From Candidatus Eiseniibacteriota bacterium (GTDB lineage Bacteria; Eisenbacteria; RBG-16-71-46): 64,000 bases of DNA. This document shows positions 2,597-60,931 of the stretch, one piece after another; position 1 is the stretch's first letter; each line of letters opens with the position of its first letter. The position numbers and the translations under genes are program-made. The notes under the pieces are model-generated. The model was not told the DNA's origin, ran no database searches, and was given only the letters and a program-made list of their open reading frames with translations. Location of the stretch: the NCBI GenBank assembly GCA_963717505.1, contig OY970342.1, positions 2,144,001 through 2,208,000 of the forward strand, in the 5' to 3' direction.

Positions 2597-5302
2597 CTAT
2601 TCGTAGCGCAATGCCTCGGTCGGGGCAATACGAGACGCCTTGAACGCCGGGATGTACGCGGCCACCAGGGTCGCCAGGAACATCGACGGAACCACAACGA
2701 AGTAGGCCAGGAGGTCCACGCCGCCGGCATTGAACAACATGGAATTCATGAGCTGCTCGACCGCGAAGCCCATCGCCAGTCCGACCACGGTTCCGGCGCC
2801 CACCAGCACCAGGCCCTTGCCCATCACCATGCGCAGCACGTCGAACGGCCTCGCGCCAATCGCCATGCGAATGCCGATCTCCCGGGTCCGGCGGCTGACG
2901 TTGTACGCCACCAGCCCGTACAAGCCGGCGATCGCCAGCAGGAGCGCCATCGCGCCCATCGTGCCCACCAGCTTGATCGCCATCGCGGGTCCTTCCACCG
3001 CCGAGTAGCTGTACAAGTCGCGGTACGATCGGGTCTCGACGATCGGCATGTTCGAATCGAGGCCGCGAACCACTTCCTTCAGAGGTTCCACCAGTTGCAG
3101 GGGATCGCGATCCGATCGCAGCAGCAGGACCATTCGGACCTGCGGGCGTTGGGCCAGCGGCACATAGACGAAGTCCCTCGGCCGCTCGCCGGTGTCCGTG
3201 TAGGTGATGGTCTGGGCGACCCCAACGACCTCGACCGGCGTTCCCGCGCGGCCATCGAGCCAGAGGCGCTTGCCCACCGCATCGGCGTCCGGCCAGTAGT
3301 GATTCGCGAACTGCTGGTTGACGACCACGACGCCGGGGGTGTCGCGCGTGTCGGACGCCAGGATTCCGCGGCCGCGCAGGATCGGGACACCCATGGTCTC
3401 GAAGTAGTCTTCACCGATTGTGTCCATGGTCGACGTGAACGCCTCGCGATCGGGCGGCATGTCGACGCCGTCCGGCACGAATGCGACTGTGCCGAACCCG
3501 TCGAGCCCGAGCGGCGGTTCCTGGGTGAGTGCCGCGCTCTGCACGCCGGGCACGGCTCGCACCCGCTCGACCAGTTGCTGGTAGAACCGCTCGGTCCGCG
3601 CCGCGTCGTACTGGATGAGGCGCGGATCGAATCTCGCGATCAACACACGATCCTGCGCGATGCGCGCGAATTCGGAGGTTTCACCCAGGGTCTGCCGGAA
3701 TCCCCGGAGCATCAGGAACGACGCGGTGAGCAGCGTCAGCGACATGGCGACCTGCGCCATGACCAGAAGGTTTCGCCCCCACAAGCGCTTTCGACCCGGC
3801 GCATCGACGTCGGCGGTCTTGAGTCCGGTCACCAGATCGTCGTGAGTGCTCTGGAAGGCGGGCGCCAGACCGCACAGGATCGCGCTCAGGCCCGACAGCA
3901 CGAGACTGGCCAGCAGAACGCGGCCGTCGATCTGAAACGGAATGGTGATCGGCAGCGAGGTGGGGATGCGGAACGTCTTGAACAGCTCGACGGTGATGTA
4001 CGCGACGACGACGCCGGCCAATCCGCCCAGGAACGCGAGGATCAGGCTCTCGGTCAGGAGCATCCGGATCACGCGGAACCGCCCGGCCCCCAGCGCCAAG
4101 CGGACGGCGATCTCACGGGTGCGCGTGCCGGCGCGGGCCAGGAGCAGCCCCGCCACGTTGGTGCACGCGACCAACAGCACGCCCAGCCCGAGGAGGGTGA
4201 AGATGACACCGAACTTCCACTCGGTCTGGTCGGGGCGCGTGCGCATTTCGAGCCGGGTGCGCACCGCTGCGCCGCGGTTGCGATTGAATTGCGGGTATTC
4301 GTGCGCGAGGTCCTGCGCGATCACCGCGAGTTCCTCCTGCGCCTGCTCGCGGGTGACGCCCGGCTTCAGGCGCGCCTTCAGGTTCAGCTCGCGATCATCC
4401 CGGTCCTCGAAGAAGTTCTTGGTCGGGTGGGTCGGAAACAGTGGCGCCATCGCGAGCGGGACGTAGAACTCGGGACGCGAGAAGATGTACATGCCCGGAA
4501 ACGACTCGGGCGCGACGCCGATCACCGTGAAATCCCTGCCGTTCAGGCGAATCGTGCTGCCCACCACCGATACGTCGCTCGCGAATTCCTGCTTCCAGCA
4601 GTCCCGCCCGATCACCACCACCGCGTCGCGGCCGGGCACCTGGTCTTCGTCCTCGCGAAACGCGCGCCCGAGCTGCGGCGTCACCCGCAACGCGCTGAAG
4701 TAGTTGCCCGAGACCATGATCGCGCTCTTGACCCGCGGAGTGGTCTCGGCAGTGACGCTGAAGCCGACCGGCCCGACGTCGGCGTTCGCGATCACGCCGT
4801 CGTAGCTCTTGGCGTGCTCGCGGATGTCCCGGTACTCGCGATACGAGAAGTTCTCGAAGCTGCGATCGCTCGAAGTACTCACCAGATTGACCACGCGATC
4901 CCCATCGGGCACCGGATAGGGCCTGAAGGTGATCGAATCGAGCATGCTGAAGGGCGCCGAGGTCATCCCGATCCCGAGCGCCAACGTGAACACCACGAGC
5001 CAGGCGATCCCCGGCGTGCGGCGCAGGCCACGGATCGCGTAGCGCACGTCGTCGACGAAGTCGGTCCACCAGTTGACGCCGCGCAGGTCGCGCATCTCCT
5101 CTTTCTTCTGCTCGATCCCGTCCATCGCCCGCAGTGCCGCGAGCCGCGCTTCGTCGGGGGAGAGACCGCTGGCGATGCCTTCCTCGATCTTGAATTCCAG
5201 GTGGAGCTTCAGCTCGTCATCGAGCTCCCGCTCCATCTGGCCGCGCCGCAGGAGGGATTTCAGCCTGAGGGGCAGCGCGAACCACCAGTGTTCGATCCGC
5301 AT
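2597..5302 (-). CDS. ADOP-family duplicated ABC permease (MacB/FtsX x2) with permease prefix domain
   Basis: ERELDDELKLHLE prefix, two RTREI(A/G)xRxAxGA FtsX motifs and multiple TM segments. Confidence 0.92.
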   Translation of the reverse strand: MRIEHWWFALPLRLKSLLRRGQMERELDDELKLHLEFKIEEGIASGLSPDEARLAALRAMDGIEQKKEEMRDLRGVNWWTDFVDDVRYAIRGLRRTPGIAWLVVFTLALGIGMTSAPFSMLDSITFRPYPVPDGDRVVNLVSTSSDRSFENFSYREYRDIREHAKSYDGVIANADVGPVGFSVTAETTPRVKSAIMVSGNYFSALRVTPQLGRAFREDEDQVPGRDAVVVIGRDCWKQEFASDVSVVGSTIRLNGRDFTVIGVAPESFPGMYIFSRPEFYVPLAMAPLFPTHPTKNFFEDRDDRELNLKARLKPGVTREQAQEELAVIAQDLAHEYPQFNRNRGAAVRTRLEMRTRPDQTEWKFGVIFTLLGLGVLLVACTNVAGLLLARAGTRTREIAVRLALGAGRFRVIRMLLTESLILAFLGGLAGVVVAYITVELFKTFRIPTSLPITIPFQIDGRVLLASLVLSGLSAILCGLAPAFQSTHDDLVTGLKTADVDAPGRKRLWGRNLLVMAQVAMSLTLLTASFLMLRGFRQTLGETSEFARIAQDRVLIARFDPRLIQYDAARTERFYQQLVERVRAVPGVQSAALTQEPPLGLDGFGTVAFVPDGVDMPPDREAFTSTMDTIGEDYFETMGVPILRGRGILASDTRDTPGVVVVNQQFANHYWPDADAVGKRLWLDGRAGTPVEVVGVAQTITYTDTGERPRDFVYVPLAQRPQVRMVLLLRSDRDPLQLVEPLKEVVRGLDSNMPIVETRSYRDLYSYSAVEGPAMAIKLVGTMGAMALLLAIAGLYGLVAYNVSRRTREIGIRMAIGARPFDVLRMVMGKGLVLVGAGTVVGLAMGFAVEQLMNSMLFNAGGVDLLAYFVVVPSMFLATLVAAYIPAFKASRIAPTEALRYE

Positions 5303-23028: not shown

Positions 23029-24950
23029 ATGGCGCATCGCGCACTGACGCTCAAGTACCGCCCGCAGGTGTTCGCCGACCTGATTGGGCAGGATCACGTC
23101 AGCACCGTCCTGATGCGGGCGATCGAAGGCAACCGCGTCGCCCACGCCTACCTGTTCACCGGGGCGCGCGGCGTCGGCAAGACCACCAGTGCTCGGATCC
23201 TGGCCAAGGCGCTCAACTGCACCACGCGCGCGGCCGGCAAGACCAAAACCGCCGATCCGTGCAACACCTGCACCAGTTGCACCGAGATCACCAGTGGCAT
23301 CTCACTCGACGTCGCCGAGATCGACGGTGCTTCGAACCGCGGCATCGCCGACGTCCAGGCGCTGCGCGAGCGCGTGCGCTTCGCCCCGACCGGCGGGCGC
23401 TACCGCGTCGTGATCATCGACGAAGTTCATCAGCTCTCGAACGACGCGTTCGCCGCACTCTTGAAGACTCTGGAAGAGCCGCCGGCGCACCTGGTGTTCG
23501 TGTTCGCCACCACCGATCCGCAGAAGCTGCCCGAGACCATCCGCTCGCGCTGCCAGCGCTTCGACTTCGCGCGGGTACCGTTGCGCAAGATCGTCGATCG
23601 CCTGGCCGACATTCAGAAACGCGAGGCGGCGGACCCCGAGGGCACGCGCTTCACGCTCACCGAGGCGGCGGCGTTCCTGATCGCCCGCGCCTCGGAAGGC
23701 TCGATGCGCGACGCGGTCGGAGCACTCGACCAGGTGGTGTCGGCCGGCGAGAGAGACTTGAACGAAGAGCTTGTACGCCGCGTGCTTGGCATCCCCGATC
23801 GCGAGGCTTTCTTTGCGATTGCGGGTGCGATCGTCGGGCGCAATCCCGCCGAGGCACTGCAGGCCTTGCACAGGGCATTCGAGAAAGGGCATCGACGCGC
23901 GCGAGCTGGCCGACGGGTTGGCCGAGCACATTCGCCATTTGCTGGTGCTTCGGGTCGATCCCGAGGGCGAGGAGCTGATTCCTGCGAGCCGCGAGGAGAT
24001 CGTGCGCCTGCGCGAGCAGGGCTCGGGCTGGACGGAAGGCGACCTGCTGCGGCTGCTCAAGCTGATCTCCGAAACGCCCCAGGTCATGAAAGACAGCCCG
24101 CAGCCGCTGGTTCATCTCGAGGCCGCGGTCATGCAGATGGCGACCCTCGAGCCGGGCGAGACCCTGGCGCAGATCCTCGAGCGTCTCGAGCAGCTCGAGC
24201 GCCGCCTGGGTGGGGCGCCATCGACACCGTCGCGCCCGGCGCCCGACCGCGCGCCGTCATCCGGTGGTCCGACGCCGCGCGCCCGCTCGAACGAGATGGC
24301 CACCGTCACGCGCACGGCCGCTGCACCTTCAGCTCCGGTTTCAGCACCCCCGCGTACGCCGGTCGAGACCCCGATGCGCGCCGAGGCTCCGATGCGCGCC
24401 GAGGCTCCGATGCGCGCCGAAACTCCGATGCGTGCCATAGCCGACACCTCGATCCTCGCGATGGTCGAGAGCGCCACGGCGACCGCCGTGCTCGAGGTCG
24501 AGCCTGAGATCGGTTCCCGAAGTCGCGCCGACTCCGGCGACGCCGCGGCCCGCTGGCTGCAGGTCATTCAAAGCATAAATTCTCGTAAGCGCATGCTCGG
24601 CGCATTTCTAGAAGAAAGTCGTTTCGGCGGCATGAACGGCGCCGAAGTTCTGCTCGAGACCGACGACCTGCACGCGAATGTGATTGACGAGAAAGAAAAC
24701 CGTGCGCTGGTGATCGAGGCCCTCACGCAGCGTGTTCGGCGTGAACGTCGCGTTCCGCTGCGTGCGCCCGGGAAGCCCGATCGCGCGCCCGATCGCGACC
24801 AATGCCGATGTCCGGCCGATGATCGAGGAGGCGATCCGCTTCTTCGACGGCGTGCCGATCGAAGTCGAAGCGACCCGCACCGAACCGCAGCGCACCGGCG
24901 CCTCCCGCGCCGGGGGCTGGGGCGGTCGAAAGGAGAGATCCGGCGGATGA
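23029..24950 (+). CDS. dnaX: DNA polymerase III subunit gamma/tau (frameshifts near 23888 and 24730)
   Basis: LKYRPQ.F..LIGQ, GARGVGKTT, zinc-binding cysteines, IIDEVH and SRCQ. Located in the ffs-dnaX-ybaB-recR cluster. Confidence 0.95.
24365..24436 (+). repeat. 4 x 18-bp tandem repeat in the dnaX linker (E[T/A]PMRA)
   Basis: GAG(A/G)C(C/T)CCGATGCGCGCC-like units, in frame. Confidence 0.9.
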
Positions 24951-25253
24951 AAAGTTTCGGCGACATGGTCAAACACGCCCAGAAACTTCAGAAGCAAATG
25001 AAAGAGCTTCAGGACCAGTTCAAAGAAGATCGCTACGAAGCCAGCGCCGGCGGCGGCATCGTGTCAGGTGGTGGTCGACGGCAAGCAGATGCTGGTCGAG
25101 ATCAAGATCCAGCCCGCGGCCCTGAAGGACGGCGACGTCGAGCTGCTCGAGGACTTGATCGTGACCGCGATCGGCGAGGCCCAGCGCACCTCCGAAGAGA
25201 ACATGAACGAGGCCCTCAAGAAGATCTCCGGCGGCTTCGGGCCGATGTTCTAG
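24947..25253 (+). CDS. ybaB: YbaB/EbfC nucleoid-associated protein (frameshift near 25065)
   Basis: MVKHAQKLQKQM...ASAGGGIV...DVELLEDLIVTA, positioned between dnaX and recR. Confidence 0.92.
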
Positions 25254-25272
25254 AAGTACCCGGCGCCCCCGC

Positions 25273-25872
25273 ATGTACAGCTCGAGATACCTGGAGCTCC
25301 TGATCGAGGAGCTGGTGAAGCTGCCGACTATTGGTCAAAAGTCCGCCCAGCGCCTGGCGCTCCATCTGCTGCGCGCTCCCAAGGAGGAGGCGCTCAGGCT
25401 GGCCGAGGCGATCCGCGCGCTGCGCGAGCACGTCGGCTTCTGCGGCACCTGCGGCAACTTCAGCGAGACCGACCCGTGCGCGATCTGCACCGACTCGCGC
25501 CGCGACGCGACACTGGTGTGCGTGGTCGAGCAGCCGGGCGACGTGATCGCGCTCGAGCGCACCGGGCAGTTCCGCGGCAAGTATCACGTGCTGGGCGGGG
25601 CGCTGGCGCCGCTCGAGGGTACACATCCGGATCAGTTGCGCATTCGAGAATTATTGGTTCGACTCAATGACGGCTCAGTCAAAGAAATTATTCTGGCGAC
25701 CAATCCCAACGTCGCCGGAGAAGCGACGGCGCTTTACTTGTCTAAGCTACTGCAACCTATGGGACTGAAAGTCACGCGTATCGCCCGTGGCGTGCCCATG
25801 GGCTCGGACCTCGAGTACTCGGACCTGGTGACTCTGGCGCGCGCCCTCGAAGGCCGGCGCGAAGTGGACTAG
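25273..25872 (+). CDS. recR: Recombination mediator RecR
   Basis: LPTIGQKSAQRLA HhH, C4 zinc finger, CVVE TOPRIM, ARGVPMG. Confidence 0.97.
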   Translation: MYSSRYLELLIEELVKLPTIGQKSAQRLALHLLRAPKEEALRLAEAIRALREHVGFCGTCGNFSETDPCAICTDSRRDATLVCVVEQPGDVIALERTGQFRGKYHVLGGALAPLEGTHPDQLRIRELLVRLNDGSVKEIILATNPNVAGEATALYLSKLLQPMGLKVTRIARGVPMGSDLEYSDLVTLARALEGRREVD

Positions 25873-25890: not shown

Positions 25891-27017
25891 ATGGACCCCT
25901 ACGTAGCAGACTTACTGAGAATCGCCGGCGTACTGGTGCTGGTCGCACTGAACGGCGTGTTCGTGGCCGCCGAGTTCGCGCTGGTCTCGGTGCGCTGGAC
26001 GCGGGTCGAGGAGATGGTCGAGGAGGGCAAGTTCGGCGCGCTCGCGGTGCGCGAAGCGGTCGAGAACCTCGACGACGCGATCGCCGCGGCACAGCTCGGG
26101 ATCACCCTCGCGAGCATCGCGCTTGGCTGGCTGGGCGAGCCGGCGATCGCGCACCTGCTCACGCCGGTGTTCTGCCGCGATTCCGGCGCCGTGGAGTGCC
26201 GCGGTGACCCACGGCATCGCGATCGCCGTGGCTTACTTGCTACATGACTTACTTGCATGTCGTTCTTGGCGAGCAGGCTCCCAAAGCCGTCGCGATCCAG
26301 CGTGCCGAAGCCGTGGCGCTGCTGGTCACCGGCCCGCTCATGCTGTTCAGCCGGTTCTCGAGGCCTTTTATCTGGGCCATACGAGAATCCAGCAACTTGG
26401 TCATTCGGCTCCTGCGCCTTCCGCCGCTCAAGACTCACGAAAAAGTTCATTCGGTCGAAGAGCTGGCCATGCTGGTCGAAGAGACCGAGGAAGCCGGCGT
26501 GCTGCCCGCCGAAGAAGCGACCTTCGTACGCAACGTGTTCGAGCTGTCCGACAAGACCGTACGCGACGTCATGGTGCCCCGCGAAAAAGTCGTCACCGTG
26601 GCCTTGAATGCCTCCGAAGACGAAGTCCTGGCCACCGCCCGCGATACCGCGCACACGCGCATGCCGGTGTGGGAGAGTAATCCCGATCACATTGTTGGAA
26701 TAGTTAATACCAAAGACCTGTTTCACTTGTTTAGCTTGAGAGGCATAGTAATACTTATGGACGCGATCTATCCGCCGGTGTTCATCCGGCCCGAGAACCG
26801 CGTGGCCGACCTGCTGCGCACGTTCAAGCGCGAGAAGCGCCAGATGGCGGTGGTCCGTGACGATCACGAACATTTCCTTGGCATCGTGACTCTGGAAGAT
26901 ATCCTGGAAGAAATCGTGGGCGAGATCGAAGACGAGCACGACTTTCCACGTTCGGCGTCGCGCAGCCACATGAAGCCTGGTGGGACGCCGGCGCCGCCTG
27001 CGCCGACCAAGCTGTGA
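25891..27017 (+). CDS. Hemolysin-family CNNM/CBS domain protein (frameshifts near 26175 and 26240)
   Basis: NGVFVAAEFALVS, QLGIT, HVVLGEQAPK, CBS pair and GIVTLEDILEEIVGEI. Confidence 0.92.
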
Positions 27018-29744: not shown

Positions 29745-30126
29745 TGGGACGGTGCGGTCGGTCTTGGATCAGACGTCGGGATCCGTCGTGTGCGGCGCGC
29801 ACCACGGCCCTCGAGCTGTGACCATGGTTGCTGGCGCGAGTGGCACCTATGTGCCCGGTCTTGAAAAAAAGTTCTTGACTAGCTTTTGAGGTGGCAGTGC
29901 CGAGACATCGCTGATGGCGCCTGGACGTCGCTCTTGCGCGCGCAGGATGCGCGCTGCCTCGCGATAATCGCCGTCACGAAAGAAATTTCATGAAGCCGTG
30001 ATTCGTGCGTCGACCGGGGCTCACAGAGAGCCGACAACGCGCGTGCGATAATGTGTGTGTCCCAACGGGCCGGATCGCAGATCCGGCCGCAGCAGCAAGC
30101 GCGCCCCCGAAGAAAGAGTTGTCGTC

Positions 30127-31374
30127 ATGCGCGCGTATTCCTGCAAGGGCCTCAACAATCGTGAGGTCCTGGAGAAGCTCTGCGAGCAAGCTGGCCCAGA
30201 ATCGTGGAAACACGGCCGAGATACTGGCCCTGATCGCCGAGGCCGAAACCCGCCGGCTCTTCGTACCGGCCGGCTATCCGTCGATGTACGAGTACTGCGT
30301 CCGGGAACTGCACATGTCGGAGCACGAGGCCCTGCTGCGAATCCGGGCGGCCCGGGCAGCTCGGCAGCATCCGGCGATCTTCGGCGCGATCGCCGCAGGG
30401 TCGGCTGCATCTGACGGCCGTGGTCTTGCTCAAGCCGTGCCTGACCCGCGACAACGCCCACGAACTGATCGCCGCCGCCACACACAAGACCAAGGCCGAG
30501 ATCGAGCTGCTGCTGGCCCAGCGCTTCCCGGGGCGGGACCTGCCCAGCCGGATCCGGGCTATCGCTCCGTCGCCGGCGACGAACGGTCAACTCGCTCCAG
30601 AACGAGTTGATGAACGGGGTGGCCGCCGGCGAACTCGCTCCAGAACGAGTTGGGACGCAGGCCGGTGAACTAGCTTCAGAACGAGTTACGACTGGCCAAC
30701 TAGCTCCAGAACGAGTTGAGACGCCGGCCGGGGAACTAGTTCCAGAACGAGTTATGCCAGCAGGCCAACTAGCTCCAGAACGAGTTACGAACGGTGAACT
30801 AGCGCCAGAACGAGTTGAGATGTCGGCCGGCCAACTAGTTCCAGAACGAGTTGCCGAGCCCTATCCCAGGGTGAAGCCATTGTCGCCGCAGCGTTTCGGG
30901 ATCCAGTTCACCATCGACCAGGCGACCCACGACGACCTGCGCTGCGTCCAGGCGCTGCTCGGCCACCAGGTTCCTTCAGGGGATTTGGCCCAAGTGTTCG
31001 CTCGGGCGCTCAAGGCGCTCAAGAAGGAGCTCGAAAAGAGCAAACTTGCGGCGACCGACCGGCCGTGCGCGAAGCCCAGGCCTGCCACCAACAAGCGCAC
31101 GATTCCAGCGCACGTGAAACGCGCCGTCAGAGAGCGCGACGGAGACCAGTGCAGCTTCGTGGGCACCAAGGGCAATCGATGCCCGGCGCATGGTCGGCTC
31201 GAATTTGATCATATCGAGCCTGTCGCAAGGGGCGGCGAGTCGACGGTGGAGAACCTGAGGCTACGCTGCCGAACGCATAACCAGTACGAGGCGGAACAGG
31301 TGTTCGGCGACGGATTCATGCACCAGAAGCGCGAAGCCGCGCGGAGCGTGGCGCAGGTTTGGCACCCCGTGTAG
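30127..31374 (+). CDS. HNH endonuclease with DUF222-like N-terminal helical domain and repeat-containing linker (at least 3 frameshifts)
   Basis: N-terminal LIAEAETRRLF..GYPSMYEYC and C-terminal VRERDGDQC...C...LEFDHIEPVARGG.STVENLRLRCRTHN. Confidence 0.88.
30589..30852. repeat. Array of 8 near-palindromic 20-bp repeats AACT(C/A)G(C/T)NNCAGAACGAGTT inside the HNH gene
   Basis: Copies start at 30589, 30632, 30668, 30698, 30734, 30767, 30797 and 30833. Spacers are 23, 16, 10, 16, 13, 10 and 16 bp. Confidence 0.95.
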
Positions 31375-33779: not shown

Positions 33780-34284
33780 ATGAAGTGGTGATCAACCTCG
33801 CCGTCCTGGTGGCAGCCCTTGCCGGGGCCGCGTTCTACTTTCAGTCCCTGCCGGCGCAGGAGAAGGTCGAGCAGCCGATCGCTTTCAACCAGAAGCCCAC
33901 GTCAAGGGCGAAGAGATGGACTGCACGGATTTCCACGACGCCGACGAATCGTCCGCGCCGGGTTCGCCGATTCGCAGCTGCTACGAGTGCACAAAGAAGT
34001 CCAAGGCGATGAGGACACGCGCTCCAGCAGTCGGTGCGTGAGTAGGGCAGGCCCGGTCGCCAGATCCCATGGGTTCAGGTGACCCACAATCGCGGCCACG
34101 TGTACTTCTCGCATCGCGCGCACGTCACCTTCGGCGGCATGAAGTGCGAGGACTGCCATGGCGACATGGGCGCCCGCACGACGCCGCCGACCCGCCCGAC
34201 CGCCGTCTGAAATCGATGGACCGTTGCATCTCGTGCCACCGCGAGCGCAACGCGTCGCTCGAGTGCACCAGCTGTCATGGCTGA
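33780..34284 (+). CDS. Membrane-anchored multiheme (about 5 heme) cytochrome c, QrcA/ActA-like (frameshifted)
   Basis: GGAGG RBS, TM anchor, QPIAFN, HVYFSHRAHV, clear CEDCH, CISCH and CTSCH motifs plus two garbled CxxCH motifs. Confidence 0.8.
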
Positions 34285-36719
34285 CCCAAGAGCTTTCATG
34301 AATTCCGGCGCTCTGGATCGGCGCGGCTTTCTCAAGGCATTGGGCGTGGGCGTGCTTGCCGGGGCCGCAAGCTCGTGCCGACCGGGCGAAGACCCCTACG
34401 CGCTCGAAAAGCCGCCCGTGCCGGGCGCCGACAAGTGGCTCCCGCACGAAGAGCGCTGGATCACCACGGCCTGTGCCCAGTGTGCCGCCGGATGCGGCGT
34501 ACGGGCGCGCGTGGTCGGCGGCCGCGCGGTCAAGCTGGATGGCCAGCCGAGCAATCCGATCAACCAGGGTGGAATCGGTCCGCGCGGGCTCTCGGGCCTC
34601 CAGGTGCTCTACGACCCGGATCGCATCACCGGCCCGATGCGCCGCAAAGGCGCGCGTGGCTCGACGGAATTTGAACCTATTACTTGGGACGCGGCACTCG
34701 ACGAGGTCGCGACGCGGCTGCGCGCGTTGCGTGACGCGGGCAATCCACATCAGCTCGGAGTGCTGTCGGGGCGCGACCGCGGCCGGACGCTCGATCTGCT
34801 GCGCCAGTTCTGCAAGGCCTACGGCACGCCCAACCTGAGCGAGGGGCTGTCGCGCCGGCTGGGCGCCGTCGCCCAGGCCGCGCTGCTCACCCAGGGCATT
34901 CACGAGATCCCCGCCTACGACTGGACCTCGACCCGTTACGTGCTGAGCGTCGGCGCCGGCGTGCTCGAGTCGTCGTGCCAGGCCATCTACTTCACCCGCG
35001 GTGCTGCGTTCATGCGGCAGGGCCGCGGCGGGGCACGCGCCAAGATCGTCCAGGTCGAGCCCGTCCGCTCGCGCACCGGGGCCCAGGCCGACGAATGGAT
35101 CGGCATCGCGCCGGGAACGTACGCCGCGTTCGTGCTCGGCATCGCACACATCCTGGTGCGCGACGACCTGTACGACGCGGCGTTCGTGCGCGACCACACG
35201 TTCGGGTTCGACGCCTGGAACACTCCCGACGGCCGCTCGATTCCAGGCTTTGCCGACATGCTCATGGCCGACTACGGCCCCGAGCAGGTCGCGGCCACCT
35301 GCGGCGTGCCGGCCGAGACCCTCGAGCGCATCGCGAGCGAGATCGGCCAAGAGCGCCCGGCGTTCGCGGTGGTCGACGAACGCGCCACGCTCGCGAGCAA
35401 CGGACTGCAGGTGGCGGTCTCGCGGTGGCGGCACTCAACGCGCTCCTCGGAGCCATCGATCGTCCGGGTGGCGTGCTGACCCAGCGGCCCGCACCCGTGG
35501 AGCCCTTGCCGCCGCCCGAGCTGGACGCCACGGCCCGCGGCGGACTCGCGCGCCCGAGGCTCGACGGCGCCGGAAGCGCGCGATTCCCGCTGGCGCCGAC
35601 CGTGACCGAGGCGCTCCCCGAAGCGCTGCTCGAAGGCGCGCCCTACGGACTGGAGATGCTGTTACTTCACTACTCGAATCCGTTGTACGCAGGCATGAAC
35701 ACCGTGCGCTGGGCCGGCGCCCTCGCCAAGGTTCCCTACGTCGTTTCGTTCACGCCGTTCATGGACGAGACGAGTGTTCAAATCGCCGACCTGATACTTC
35801 CAGACCACACCTATCTCGAGCGCTGGGAGGACGCGGCCTCGGCGCCGAGCGTCGGCTATCCGGTGTACGGCGTGCGGCAGCCGGTGGTCGAGCCGCTGTA
35901 CGACACGCGCTCGAGCGGCGACGTCGTGCTCCAGATCGCGGCCAGGATCGGCGGCCCGGTGGCGGCCGCTCTGCCCTGGGAGAAGTTCGAGGCGGTCCTC
36001 GACCGGGACATCGAAGCCCTGATGGCGACCGGCCGCGGCACGATCGACGAGGACGAATTCAAACCCTACAAGCGCAAGCTGGCTCAGGAAGGATTCTGGG
36101 CCGAGCCCGGCTACACCTACGAACGCTGGGCAGAAGTCCTGCGCACACCGTCCGGCAAGTTCGAGTTCTTCTCGCAGGCGCTGTGGCGCAAGTTGTCCGA
36201 GATCGCGGCCGCCGAGGGGCGAAGCGTCGAGGACGTGCTGGAGGTTGCGGGTCACGAGGGGCCCGCCCACCTGGCGTGCATGGCGCACCACGTGGCTCTG
36301 CGCTGGATCGGAGACCCCGCGCAGTTCCCGCTGGCCCTCGAGCCGTACGAGCCCGGCACCTACGCCGAAGGCAGCGGGGCCAACCTGCCCCTGCTCCAGG
36401 AACTGACGACGGTGCGCGGCCAGAAGCCGTGGACGACGCTGGTCGAGATCGGGGAAGAGACGGCACACGCCCACCACATCGACTCGGGAGACCTGGTCGA
36501 GATCCGGAGCCTGGTCGGTTCCGCGCGCGTGCGGGTGCGCGTCAAGAAGGGCCAACGCCCGGACGTGATTCGCGTCGCGCGCGGTGGCGGACATTCGGCA
36601 TTCGGTCGCTGGGCGGCGGGTGGGGCATCAACGTGATGTCCTTGCTGGCCCCCACCACCGCAACGCTCGCGGGCGTGCCGGCGCTGACCGCCACGCGCGT
36701 TTCGGTCGAGAAGGTCTAG
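34277..36719 (+). CDS. Tat-exported molybdopterin-oxidoreductase-family subunit, QrcB/ActB1-like (frameshifts near 35420 and 36620)
   Basis: DRRGFLK Tat motif plus lipobox AASSC, CAQCAAGC, YDPDRI..P, ADLILPDHTYLE, RTPSGKFEF and C-terminal domain IV. Confidence 0.88.
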
Positions 36720-51257: not shown

Positions 51258-53650
51258 TGGAACCCCTGGCAACCGCCGTCTGGACCTGGGTCCTGCAACT
51301 CACCTGGGTCGATCTTGCGTGGTTCTTGATTCGGGTGACGCTGGTCGCGCTTCTCGCGCACCTGGCACTCGCTCTCGCCGCACGCGCCTCGTCCGCGACG
51401 CGGCACCACATCGCCTCGACTGCGCTGCTGGTGCTCGTCCTGTTGCCGGCGGCAACCGTGATTCTGCCGACGTGGCCGCTTCCGATCCTGCCGCCTGAGC
51501 GGCGTTTGGCTGTGTTGGCGCAAGCGGCGACGAGCCCTGTGTCGTCGGTCGAGCCCGTGAACGGAGCGGCCGAGGCACCGGCTGCCATCGAGTCGGTCAC
51601 CCCGAAGTCGAGGAGTGCTGCTCCCGGCGCGACTCCACGTCTCATCCTGGACGAATCCCTTGCGCCGCTGCCCGTGATTTCCCCGATGCCTCGGTCAGCG
51701 CACCCGCTCGATGGCGCCCGTCCGCGCAGCACCCCACCGATACCGGCGCCAGCCGCAGTTCTGCTGGCGGTGCTGCTCGTGACGGCCGGTTTGCTGCTCC
51801 GCTCCGCGATTTGCTTTGGCCTGGCCGCCAGGCTGGCTCGGCGCGCCACCGTCGTCGCCGACCCGGCGCTTCGGCGCGAGTTCGAGCGAGCCCGCGAGAT
51901 GCTCGCCGTGCGGCGTCCGGTCGAGCTCAAGATGAGCGCTGGCGTCGCGGTCCCGGCGATCATCGGCTTCGCCCGGCCGTCGCTCGTGCTGCCGGTTTCG
52001 GCATCGACCTGGGATCTCGAGCAACTGCACGCCGTATTTCTCCATGAGCTGGCACATGTTCGACGCCAGGATGCGCTCGCCGTGATGTTGGCGTCCGTCG
52101 CGACTGCGATCTATTGGCTCCATCCGTTGGTGCGTTCCCTGGCGCGCGAGGCTCGGCGCGAGGCCGAGCGCGCTTGCGACGATGAGGTGCTCGAATGCGG
52201 CGTCCGCCCGTCGGCCTATGCGGGGCACTTGCTCCAAATCGCTCGCGTCGCGACCGCGCGCGACCCGCTGGACGGCGTGATGCTGGCGGTCGCCCAACGG
52301 TCGAGCCTCGAGAAACGGCTGCTGTCGATCCTCGAGCCCGGCTTCAAGCGCGAGCGCCTCACTGCCCGCACGTTGGCGGCGGTGGTCGCCGTTGCCGTGG
52401 CCTGTCTGGTGCCGATCGCCGCGGTCCAGGTCATCGCGGGGCCATCCGCGAAACACGAGACGCAGGCGGCGCCACCCGCTAATCAAGAGACGCCGGCGGC
52501 GCCATCCGCGAAACACAAGACGCAACCGTCGCCCGTTGCCGAACGATTCGACGACTCGGAGGGCGCAGCGCGGTCTGGAGAAGAGTGGTACTCAGAAGCG
52601 CGCTCGCACTACAACGGCGAGAGCTACAATGCGGCCGGCAACGCCTACGAAAACGCCGCGGAGGCCGGCTACCGGCGCCCGATGGCGCTCTACAATGCGG
52701 CCTGCAGCTATGCGCTCGATGGCCAGCGCCTGCGGGCGATCGGGGCGATCGAGGCTGCCATCTCGGCGGGCTTCCGGGATGTGGGACTGCTATCGCGGGA
52801 CTCGGACCTGGAGAGCATTCGTTCGGACCCGAGGTTCGTGCTGATGATGCGGGGTCTCGAGTACATGGAATCCGATGTCGAGTACGCGGAGCGCACGCCC
52901 GCGCCGGTGGCCCCCGCGCCGATGTCGCCCACGCCGGTGCCGCCCACTCCGATGTCGCCCGCGCCGGTGCCGCCCGCGCCCGTGGCGCCCGCGCCGGTGG
53001 CCGCCAAGGCGGTCGAGGCCGAGCTGGTGCACGAGCCCAGTGCGAGCGGGCTCTACAACCTGGCCTGCGCCCGAGCGCTGTCCGGCGATGTACCTGGCGC
53101 CCTTTCCGCGCTCGAGAAATCCGTTCATGCCGGATTCGGCAGCGCCGACCACATGGTCGAGGACGACGATTTGGCGTCGCTCCGCGGTGAGCCGGAATTC
53201 CGGCGACTCGTGCAGCTCACTCGCGACCTCCAATACTACGAACCCGGCACCAAAGACGAGGATCCGTCTTCCTGGCGCAAGTCGGTGACGCGCCTCGAGC
53301 GTGTTGCCCGCGAGCATCCGGACCTTGGACGCGCCTGGTTCAGCCTTGGCTTCGCCCGGCTCCGCGCGGGCGATGCGCAAGGCAGTGGCCAGGCATTCGC
53401 GCGCGCGCTCGAACTGGGCCACCGTCCGCCGACCACGATGTACAACCTGGGCTGCGCCGCGGCGCAGGCCGGCGATCGGGACGCGGCCATCGACTGGCTC
53501 GAGCGTGCCGAGGTGGCCGGCTTCGATCTCGAGATCGCGTTGAAAGACGGCGACCTCGATCCGCTCCGCTCGGACCCGCGGTTCAAGGCACTGCTCGATC
53601 GTGTGCGGCAGCAGAATGAGAAAGAGAAGCTGAGCGCCAAGAAGCACTAG
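51257..53650 (+). CDS. BlaR1-like M56 metallopeptidase with TPR-type C-terminal sensor region
   Basis: TM helices, HELAHVRR.D, WLHPL and EAERACD, followed by three YN.(A/G)C...D.DL..(L/I)R..P.F TPR modules. Confidence 0.92.
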   Translation: MEPLATAVWTWVLQLTWVDLAWFLIRVTLVALLAHLALALAARASSATRHHIASTALLVLVLLPAATVILPTWPLPILPPERRLAVLAQAATSPVSSVEPVNGAAEAPAAIESVTPKSRSAAPGATPRLILDESLAPLPVISPMPRSAHPLDGARPRSTPPIPAPAAVLLAVLLVTAGLLLRSAICFGLAARLARRATVVADPALRREFERAREMLAVRRPVELKMSAGVAVPAIIGFARPSLVLPVSASTWDLEQLHAVFLHELAHVRRQDALAVMLASVATAIYWLHPLVRSLAREARREAERACDDEVLECGVRPSAYAGHLLQIARVATARDPLDGVMLAVAQRSSLEKRLLSILEPGFKRERLTARTLAAVVAVAVACLVPIAAVQVIAGPSAKHETQAAPPANQETPAAPSAKHKTQPSPVAERFDDSEGAARSGEEWYSEARSHYNGESYNAAGNAYENAAEAGYRRPMALYNAACSYALDGQRLRAIGAIEAAISAGFRDVGLLSRDSDLESIRSDPRFVLMMRGLEYMESDVEYAERTPAPVAPAPMSPTPVPPTPMSPAPVPPAPVAPAPVAAKAVEAELVHEPSASGLYNLACARALSGDVPGALSALEKSVHAGFGSADHMVEDDDLASLRGEPEFRRLVQLTRDLQYYEPGTKDEDPSSWRKSVTRLERVAREHPDLGRAWFSLGFARLRAGDAQGSGQAFARALELGHRPPTTMYNLGCAAAQAGDRDAAIDWLERAEVAGFDLEIALKDGDLDPLRSDPRFKALLDRVRQQNEKEKLSAKKH
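52441..52530 (+). repeat. 3 x 30-bp in-frame tandem repeat in the M56 linker
   Basis: GCCA(T/C)CCGC(G/T)AA...AGACGC units at 52441, 52471 and 52501. Confidence 0.85.
52895..53002 (+). repeat. About 7 x 15-bp Pro-rich tandem repeat in the M56 protein
   Basis: Encodes PAPVA/PAPMS/PTPVP units. Confidence 0.8.
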
Positions 53651-59737: not shown

Positions 59738-60041
59738 GGAGGGGCTCCGGGTTGGGTCCGGGAGTATAGTGCGTCCGAGGCTTCGAGCATGATTCCCGAC
59801 ATCCGTGCAATGAAGGTGATCCCCGAGCCCGTGCCGAACACGCGGACCGTCCTGGAGCCAACGAGCCGAGCAGCTAAAGACAAGCTCTGCTGGTCTTACT
59901 TAGGGTCTCCGCAACTAAAGCCAATTCAGCAGGGCAGGAACCGTTCAGGCCGACTCCGGGGCCCCGTGGCCTCTTTTCATTTGGCCCCATCTACGCTAAT
60001 AATGCTCCTGGTTATTTGCGCCCCCGCGAACAAGGAGCCCT

Positions 60042-60775
60042 ATGACGCCAGAGCGCAGGCCCCACGGGCGCAACCTCCGCGCGTCCGGCGGGTACCGAGC
60101 CTACGTGCCGGAGCCGCTCCCGCCAGCGATCGCGTGGAGCGGGGAGATGGCGGCCGCGCTCTCGGCGGCGGATCGGGCGGTGGGCCGACTGGCGGGCGAA
60201 GGCCGCGGTCTCCCGAACCCCCATTTGCTCATTCGTCCATTCGTCCGACGCGAGGCGGTGCTCTCGAGCCGAATCGAGGGCACTCAAGCGACGCTCGGTG
60301 AGTTGCTGGCAGCCGAGGCGGGTGCTGCGGTCGAGCGCAGTCCGGCGGATCTTCGCGAGGTCGGCAACTACGTTGTCGCCTCGAACACGGCATCGATCGC
60401 CTGGCACGCCTGCCACTCTCGCTGCGGCTGGTGCGCGAGCTTCACGACAAGCTCATGCGCGACGTGCGTGGCAACACGGCGACGCCCGGGGAGTTCAGGC
60501 GCAGCCAGAACTGGATTGGTCCGCCGGGCTCAACGCTGGCGACGCGACCTACGTTCCACCGCCCCCTGATCGGTTGGCGGAGTGTCTAGGCGCCTGGGAG
60601 CGGTTCCTGCACGACGATTCCATGCCGCCGCTGGTCCAGGCGGCCCTGATGCGTTCGCAGTTCGAGGCGATCCACCCGTTCCTCGACGGCAATGGGCGGG
60701 TGGGCCGGCTGCTGATCACGCTGCTATTGATCACCAGGGCGTGCTGCCGTCGCCGCTCCTCTACCTGAGCGCGTC
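60042..60775 (+). pseudogene. Fic family protein, frameshifted and 3'-truncated
   Basis: EAVLSSRIEG inhibitory helix, PGEFRRSQNWIG and HPFLDGNGRVGR. Homology stops after LLYLSA. Confidence 0.82.
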
Positions 60776-60879
60776 GTGGGGAAGATTCTCGGACCGACGA
60801 TTGCTCAGGACATTGAGTGAGAATACTCAGAGCCTTGAGTACCCAGCCTTCTTCCCCATCAGCGGGGCCACAGGCCGGC

Positions 60880-60931
60880 CAACTAAAGCGAAGGTCTCTT
60901 GGCTTTAGTTAGCGCCTCCGCAACTAAAGCC
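60880..60931. repeat. Palindromic element GGCTTTAGTT-N11-AACTAAAGCC, best copy of a family of about 5 degenerate elements
   Basis: Perfect 10-bp arms at 60901-60931 plus an extra half-site at 60880. Related copies near 50690, 57120, 59892 and 60010. Confidence 0.7.

Follow-up and report, generated by a model that had tools for sequence, protein, structure and literature searches.

A solitary HNH nuclease gene with dyad sites in its own linker and a ParB-like N-terminal domain predicted to bind them

The 13E12 (REP13E12) genes, which encode DUF222-HNH proteins (PF02720), are solitary, multicopy, and dispersed, and their products combine a helical N-terminal domain with a C-terminal HNH domain. 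According to the accessible parts of two reports, these genes are LexA bound or induced by DNA damage in M. tuberculosis (PMC3381160) and are over-represented at inversion breakpoints, which was ascribed there to homologous recombination (PMC13157036). Recognition of a palindrome by a two-fold dimer, with about four residues setting specificity, is typical of ParB-parS, Noc-NBS, and KorB-operator pairs. The accessible part of one study describes parS and NBS as 16-bp dyads and a switch of specificity between ParB and Noc by four residues in or after the recognition helix, i.e., R173, T179, A184, and G201 (PMC7383237). Free-standing HNH homing endonucleases and IscB are solitary HNH nucleases as well and are likely selfish. 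In Bacillus, a parS site lies inside parB, and initiators such as lambda O and plasmid Rep proteins carry their own iterons in the interdomain linker of the initiator gene.

Here, we analyzed a solitary HNH gene found in a 64-kb stretch of DNA (hereafter, the window) and its relatives. The family resembles 13E12 in layout, but its PF02720 match falls below the cut-off, its hosts are mostly Ca. Eisenbacteria, and the accessible part of the 13E12 literature mentions no sites within the gene itself, recognition code, ribbon-helix-helix (RHH) unit, or RuvA-C-like tail. It shares with ParB, Noc, and KorB the predicted fold, a predicted two-fold dimer on a palindrome, and about four specificity residues, whereas the HNH fusion, the 20-bp gene-specific site, the dozens of specificities, and the lack of a CTP-binding domain and of ParA set it apart. 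Like lambda O and Rep genes, it carries putative sites of its own in its own linker; unlike theirs, these are dyads, usually in one or two copies, in a chromosomal gene that encodes a ParB-type fold and a nuclease domain and has no replicon genes beside it. The analogy with lambda O drawn in the first-pass annotation is less close than that with ParB/parS or KorB/operator. In contrast to homing endonucleases, the putative recognized site is inside the gene and not in an empty allele. No description of self-sites, a code, a split promoter, or a RuvA-C tail in this family was found in the literature covered, chiefly papers free of subscription.

The window gene and its relatives

The features of the window gene are listed in Table 1. 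Relative to an intact relative (P0002), the gene consists of four pieces separated by three frameshifts. Because the reading frame of dnaX (23029-25303), another gene of the window, is disrupted as well, the frameshifts probably stem from assembly; a CBS-domain gene (25891-27017) and a molybdopterin oxidoreductase gene (34277-36719) are frameshifted too, pointing to an indel-rich assembly. A Fic-like gene recognized by eye at 59865-60931, likewise frameshifted, lies between 58-bp direct repeats of 78% identity, has the CGCCCCCG motif ahead of its start as the HNH gene does, and may be another solitary cassette. In-frame tandem repeats unlike the dyad occur at 52436-52533 (30-bp units), 52881-53030 (15-bp units), and 24364-24435 (18-bp units).

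Table 1. Features of the HNH gene and its upstream segment (window coordinates)
Feature	Position	Strand	Basis or remark
A/T tract + TTGAC (29875-29879), -35-like, conserved left edge	29864..29879	+	Family comparison
Spacer of fixed length and variable sequence, periodic	29880..30042	+	Family comparison
Extended -10-like motif GTGCGATAAT	30043..30052	+	Conserved RTGNTANAAT
CGCCCCCG motif, about 20 nt ahead of start codon	30102..30109	+	C-run conserved in pre-ATG profile
Solitary gene: predicted ParB-type DNA-binding domain, linker, RHH, HNH	30127..31374	+	Without RuvA-C-like tail
N-domain: long predicted dimerization helix + ParB/KorB-like helix-turn-helix; weak DUF222 match	30127..30530	+	Models from intact relatives
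Putative recognition helix, residues 64-76; H66, L69, R73	30317..30355	+	Covariation
T96, fourth putative specificity position	30414-30416	+	Covariation
Eight 20-bp dyad sites AAC-N14-GTT, tandem	30589..30852	.	Predicted targets of the N-domain dimer that the gene encodes
RHH-like domain	30892..31044	+	Strand-helix-helix in model; weak fold matches
Zn-binding HNH nuclease domain, D-H and C-x2-H-N residues intact	31096..31296	+	PF01844, E 6e-6

A search with the C-terminal ORF identified 1,529 proteins out of 8,000 scored candidates, and a profile search returned 8,817 clusters (50% identity) with E <= 1e-30. Of the 190 GTDB loci that were confirmed, the best 80 came chiefly from Ca. Eisenbacteria, and a single genome contained as many as 8 of these. 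Look-alike Atlas clusters were chiefly from Myxococcota and Bdellovibrionota, with DUF222 in 13-42% of their members. Four loci with a missing or frameshifted linker were dropped from the locus set, and L008 was left out of alignment A2. Several known element types were considered and rejected. An iteron-bearing replication initiator is not supported, since plasmid and phage collections gave no family match and PHROG matches were confined to the HNH part. IscB/OMEGA was set aside for lack of RuvC, omegaRNA, or any upstream RNA structure, with an NF040563 score of 28.6 bits against a cut-off of 175, and an insertion sequence was set aside for lack of a transposase family and of a conserved right end or terminal repeats shared across loci. 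A ParABS partition system was rejected because the N-domain begins with a long helix, Pfam scans gave no ParBc match, and no neighbor gene is shared.

In the model of P0002, a confidently predicted N-domain is followed by a disordered linker, a strand-helix-helix unit, and the HNH domain. Modeled alone, the N-domain reached a pLDDT of 96.6, opening with one long helix. Its top four fold matches were ParB-parS (Z = 7.4), KorB-operator (7.4), KorB (7.3), and Spo0J (6.8), with rmsd values of 2.8-5.8 over 91-117 aligned residues, followed by Raf1 (6.6); all are below 8, i.e., moderate and in the range about which the tool warns. At this moderate level, the fold matches place a helical domain of ParB topology, with a helix-turn-helix, in the N-domain. 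A PDB sequence search with the N-domain gave no match to ParB, returning designed helical proteins and an ABC transporter only, and Foldseek gave no match at E <= 0.001. DUF222 was matched at model positions 4-113 of 306 in 13/45 members (best E, 4.4e-5), and the best PF02720 score, covering a third of the model, was 23.4 bits against a gathering score of 24.4. By this cut-off, the family is a distant relative of DUF222 rather than a member.

The N-domain homodimer model scored 0.91 (best control, 0.00), with a pLDDT of at least 94 and contacts agreeing at no less than 98% between runs; in calibration, 20/30 solved dimers and 1/23 monomers attained the mark. The modeled interface is formed chiefly by helix 11-41, and dimer formation is supported by these predictions. 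Residues 252-305 weakly resemble the RHH proteins TraM, MazE6, and pCXC100 ParB (Z, 4.7-5.0). In the nuclease domain, which matches the folds of IscB and McrA (Z, 6.9-7.5), residues C337, C347, D356, H357, C376, H379, and N380 are invariant in 67/67 proteins. A RuvA C-terminal-like tail was recognized by pattern in 102 of 221 full-length proteins; it is missing in the window copy and in P0002. PF07499 (RuvA_C) matched 8 of 20 proteins and 16 of 30 in a second set selected for having tails, at E values up to 1 (best, 2e-6).

The linker dyad and its covariation with the N-domain

The array of eight 20-bp cores reported in the first-pass annotation is real. The cores start at 30589, 30632, 30668, 30698, 30734, 30767, 30797, and 30833, and the measured periods of 43, 36, 30, 36, 33, 30, and 36 bp agree with the spacing of 30, 33, or 36 bp plus one of 43 bp given there. 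AACT and CAGAACGAGTT are kept in 8/8 cores, and the frame change suspected at the 43-bp period was located at 30607/30608. The dyad character ascribed to the core held in part: just 6-8 of 10 positions pair per copy, making these palindromes weaker than the sites of most relatives, but mean pairing (7.25) exceeds that of synonymous recodings (4.74 +/- 0.40) and was matched by 0/5000 of them, i.e., the symmetry is above the level given by the peptide. Similarly, measured against a crude set of long ORFs, the codons described as rare are so for CTA (1.6% of Leu), GTT (6.7%), CCA (9%), and CGA (12%), and less so for GAA (27%). The core pattern occurs nowhere else in the window, where 0.01 occurrences were expected by chance. 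At a higher order, a 99-bp unit is duplicated, cores 6-8 repeating cores 3-5 with mismatches at 2/60 core positions versus 11/33 spacer positions, and by this comparison, the array has expanded by tandem duplication while the cores were conserved.

Across the family, one site was found in 43/70 loci and two in 13/70, and long arrays were also seen in the relatives P0002 and P0243. These counts weaken the framing as an iteron array and identify the eight copies, on comparison with relatives, as a local tandem amplification of a site present once or twice in most of them. In a scan blind to the peptide and to the site ends, 20-mers with at least 9/10 pairs reached 6.8 per kb in linkers, whereas the flanks and the two domains had 0.08-0.19 per kb. 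Dyads of the AAC-N14-GTT type at this threshold were present in 59/70 delimited linkers, a density about 40 times background. When sites were picked by peptide pattern instead, 85/124 had at least 9 pairs, compared with a mean of 0.09 and a maximum of 2 after synonymous recoding, and peptide constraint was rejected as the origin of the dyads. Linker peptides such as LAPERV, LAPGQV, LVPEPV, LSPGTV, and HAPGHV are translated dyads, read in a single frame by all except 2 of 96 sites, and the bases inferred for the left and right arms agree in 127/129 protein motifs.

Perfect dyads occur in 21 different versions that match or nearly match AAC-N14-GTT; site interiors vary among relatives yet stay symmetric, and the AAC/GTT ends are fixed. 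Pairs 4-9 each covary above all 2000 shuffles, whereas the central pair does not, and pair 9/12, whose members are 2 nt apart, covaries (96/102 versus 73 shuffled). Mismatched pairs are more often C.A (n = 34) than G.T (n = 17). Together, these patterns indicate that the linker dyad is a double-stranded DNA site under constraint at the DNA level. The earlier proposal that constraint acts on DNA or RNA rather than on the LAPERV peptide is therefore upheld for DNA, given the recoding and pair covariation, and not for RNA, given the excess of C.A over G.T. The commonest central defect is a change of CCGG to CCAG or CTGG (24/96 sites), as expected from deamination of methylated CpG. Outside linkers, 9 profile matches were found in 668,496 positions, with none elsewhere in the window; around these loci, the dyad therefore does not constitute a dispersed repeat of the REP type.

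We then related site bases, extracted by profile alignment, to residues of the N-domain. Of 134 N-domain columns compared in 62 loci, column 69 ranked first for base 4, column 73 for base 5, column 66 for base 6, and column 96 for both base 8 and base 9. The same four residues also led when about 295 columns of the N- and C-domains were compared in 137 full-length proteins whose sites were inferred from their peptides; in the remaining 94 of 231, the strict pattern recognized no motif. Among 71 cluster representatives (50% clusters), the four residue-base pairs gave Fisher p values of 4e-9, 1e-6, 4e-5, and 7e-9. Small residues at position 69 accompany A at base 4, and aromatic ones accompany T; at base 6, G is associated with D66 and T with E, Q, P, or T at that position; at position 96, T is associated with the bases T or G, and either S or A with the base C. 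Q at position 73 goes with T at base 5, but since R goes with either G (21) or C (10), the code is incomplete. Also speaking against a clean code, the sites within a gene are not alike at bases 4-6 in 10/21 multi-site genes. The window copy has H66, L69, R73, and T96, and its invariant right arm AACTCGTTC fits the code, base 5 being of the minority class. Residues 66, 69, and 73 have the spacing expected of positions that share one face of the putative recognition helix (here, 65-80), and residue 96 is presumably equivalent to G201 of ParB/Noc.

Shared descent was addressed with a tree of 198 rows built without columns 66, 69, 73, and 96. For residues other than 73, independent tree pairs ran 10.2:0.0 (p 0.002), 7.4:0.0 (p 0.016), and 14.2:1.0 (p 0.001) in the predicted direction; for residue 73, they ran 6.9:0.7 and 7.4:1.0 (p 0.04 and 0.07), and control residues 62, 77, and 80 gave no signal. 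The same test on the 62 loci, underpowered at 3-5 pairs per trait, was not significant. Inheritance in blocks is an unlikely cause of the code because single residues map to single bases. Only 16-17% of pairs with N-domains more than 70% identical share a site type and, as judged from these comparisons, site specificity turns over fast. In L015/L021 and in L007/L016, whose members occupy matching chromosomal positions in separate genomes, both the sites and the specificity residues differ; the code therefore changes in place. As the first-pass annotation had anticipated for a recognized site, the repeats thus differ between homologs, stay palindromic, and covary with the N-domain. Covariation and modeling together suggest that the N-domain of each protein most likely binds the dyad in its own gene. 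We consider it highly probable that this domain is a two-fold dimer of the ParB/KorB type in which residues 69, 73, 66, and 96 read bases 4, 5, 6, and 8; the system would then work like a ParB-parS or KorB-operator pair contained within one gene and fused to an HNH nuclease.

The upstream segment and the flanks

An A/T tract followed by TTGAC lies 210-276 nt ahead of the start codon in 53/60 loci with upstream DNA. The distance from TTGAC to RTGNTA is 167-170 in 49 of these 53 (used for alignment A3, with 4 outliers left out) and 168 in the window, where the paired motif occurs once. This spacing is about 149 bp beyond the limit of a sigma-70 promoter. No canonical sigma-70 -35/-10 pair was found in a scan of the window, and visual inspection of 9 listed loci without the long spacer revealed no collapsed TTGAC-17-(-10) arrangement. 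Median pairwise identity of the spacer is 41% (28% by chance), its length being nonetheless fixed. Its A/T and CG/GC steps have a period of 10.0-10.1 bp, near antiphase (p = 0.007 and 0.001, respectively, in the 9.5-11.5 band), although the sequences are related and the signal is partly one ancestral one. Since a fixed length with a 10-bp periodicity is the signature expected of protein-wrapped DNA, the spacer is probably wrapped or bent. As RNA, it showed no consensus pairs or covarying stems (mean folding z, -0.4), and five Rfam matches were all at chance level; an inverted repeat, TTTTCGG...CCGAAAA, seen in a few loci was not supported. A short repeat, CTGTTACCAGTGTGCCCGGTCT, adjoins the left edge in the window (~29845-29862) and in L022, L057, L062 (in tandem), L072, and L074, and this CTGTTACCAGTGTGCCCGGTCT context is possibly a preferred insertion context.

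Neighbors mostly differ between loci, and no neighbor gene is common to all. Among 71 loci with flanks, both flanks were common to two pairs and one flank to eight pairs; two locus pairs were inherited vertically. No empty site was found among the 80 loci and the window, with one genome per species. Direct repeats of 64-151 bp and 83-88% identity surround the element in 3/55 usable loci and are missing in 52/55, after removal of 4 loci with mis-set starts. In L010, 151 bp resembling the 3' end of a host gene are duplicated at 83% identity, one copy lying 453-303 nt ahead of the start codon and the other 36-178 nt past the stop codon. In L034 (2296-2359 and 3931-3993) and L039 (about 1568-1639 and 3240-3310), repeats lie on both sides of the element, and in L025, a similar repeat of ~70 bp lies downstream (about 878-935). 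Those of L034, L039, and L025 are nested palindromes, with GTTGAG-N4-CTCAAC dyads beside a 20-bp AAC..GTT dyad, which we take to be loosely attC- or dif-like. No sign of recent movement was found among the loci compared. Because same-genome paralogs are mostly 66-84% identical among the alignments listed and two pairs are inherited vertically, movement of the element is, on this comparison, slow at best.

Proposed mechanism and competing explanations

We assign a probability of roughly 0.5 to the reading that the gene is a selfish element consisting of a single gene, which its own protein marks. The linker carries a 20-bp double-stranded dyad under DNA-level constraint, amplified to eight in the window copy, and protein and site would change together, giving rise to many specificities. 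The bound dimer would anchor the HNH domain at the locus that encodes it, probably acting in cis, as the site comes shortly past the N-domain coding sequence; the first site usually lies 43-130 nt past its end, which, speculatively, would permit cis binding during coupled transcription and translation. The HNH domain would nick nearby DNA, host recombination would repair the break, with the RuvA-C-like tail present in about half of the family aiding it by recruitment of RuvB, and repair would occasionally copy or convert the gene into new chromosomal places. For this step, from anchoring to recombinational copying, the odds appear even; it is favored because the genes are dispersed, keep an intact active site, and in part carry the RuvA-like tail or flanking duplications, and the damage induction and inversion breakpoints of 13E12, as far as the accessible reports go, point the same way. 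Counting against it are the failure to find an empty site or a conserved right end, the missing matches in plasmid and phage collections, the tailless window copy, and the 52/55 loci devoid of flanking repeats. More weakly, the wrapped periodic upstream segment may time transcription or define the left end that is acted on. A fuller version, namely, a mobile element without a transposase that combines a ParB-type dimer, a rapidly reprogrammed four-residue code, a dyad in its own frame, a nick, RuvB-aided copying, and a split promoter whose -35 and -10, 149 bp too far apart, would be aligned only when the spacer is looped or removed, is tentative.

The strongest competitor, though a doubtful one, is that the dyads form an intragenic operator for autorepression of a toxic or stress-induced nuclease, through a roadblock by the dimer or an RHH-mediated loop to the upstream segment, with new specificities escaping resident paralogs. 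KorB-type and RHH domains are known repressors. The residue-base covariation, the ParB-like fold, and the dimer model suit autorepression equally, and the fast turnover of specificity and the promoter-like upstream motifs with conserved geometry are consistent with it. However, paralogs of the same genome are not more divergent in site than others (shared site in 3/43 pairs, a small number, versus 105/1787 between genomes), and comparison of RHH and N-domain columns with upstream DNA gave nothing coherent, no column clearly covarying. PADLOC defense models had no match except one HNH fragment in 8 proteins, and autorepression leaves the RuvA-C-like tail and the dispersal unexplained.

It is improbable that the dyads act as cruciforms or single-strand hairpins processed by the nuclease or by RuvAB-type machinery, with symmetry mattering more than sequence. 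Symmetry is indeed near perfect even at weakly read positions, sites within one gene differ at bases 4-6 while remaining symmetric in 10/21 multi-site genes, and the RuvA-C-like tail is common; these observations are outweighed by the covariation of single bases with single helix residues and of pair 9/12, and by the fixed AAC/GTT ends. A functionless tandem duplication of the linker peptide, its palindromes perfected by template switching, is very improbable: the 99-bp unit of the eight-copy array and the nearly uniform reading frame fit it, but it accounts for copy number only and leaves the conserved cores, the family-wide dyads, and the residue-base covariation unexplained. Least probable of all is the mRNA hairpin array suggested at first, or a guide-RNA array as in TIGR/CRISPR, for although the window array folds at z = -2.76, the dyads show no G.U preference, stems would have 0-2 nt loops, most genes have a single site, and there is no Rfam match.

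If the N-domain binds as predicted, each gene constitutes its own protein-site pair, and the family would be a natural table of matched helix-turn-helix specificities from which a residue-to-base code may be read. The nearest named relative, 13E12/DUF222-HNH, has no known mechanism in the accessible part of its literature, and binding to the gene's own linker would offer a concrete first assay for the role of these nucleases. Should the 168-bp promoter geometry or the recruitment of RuvB prove functional, either would represent a novel mode of gene control or gene mobility.
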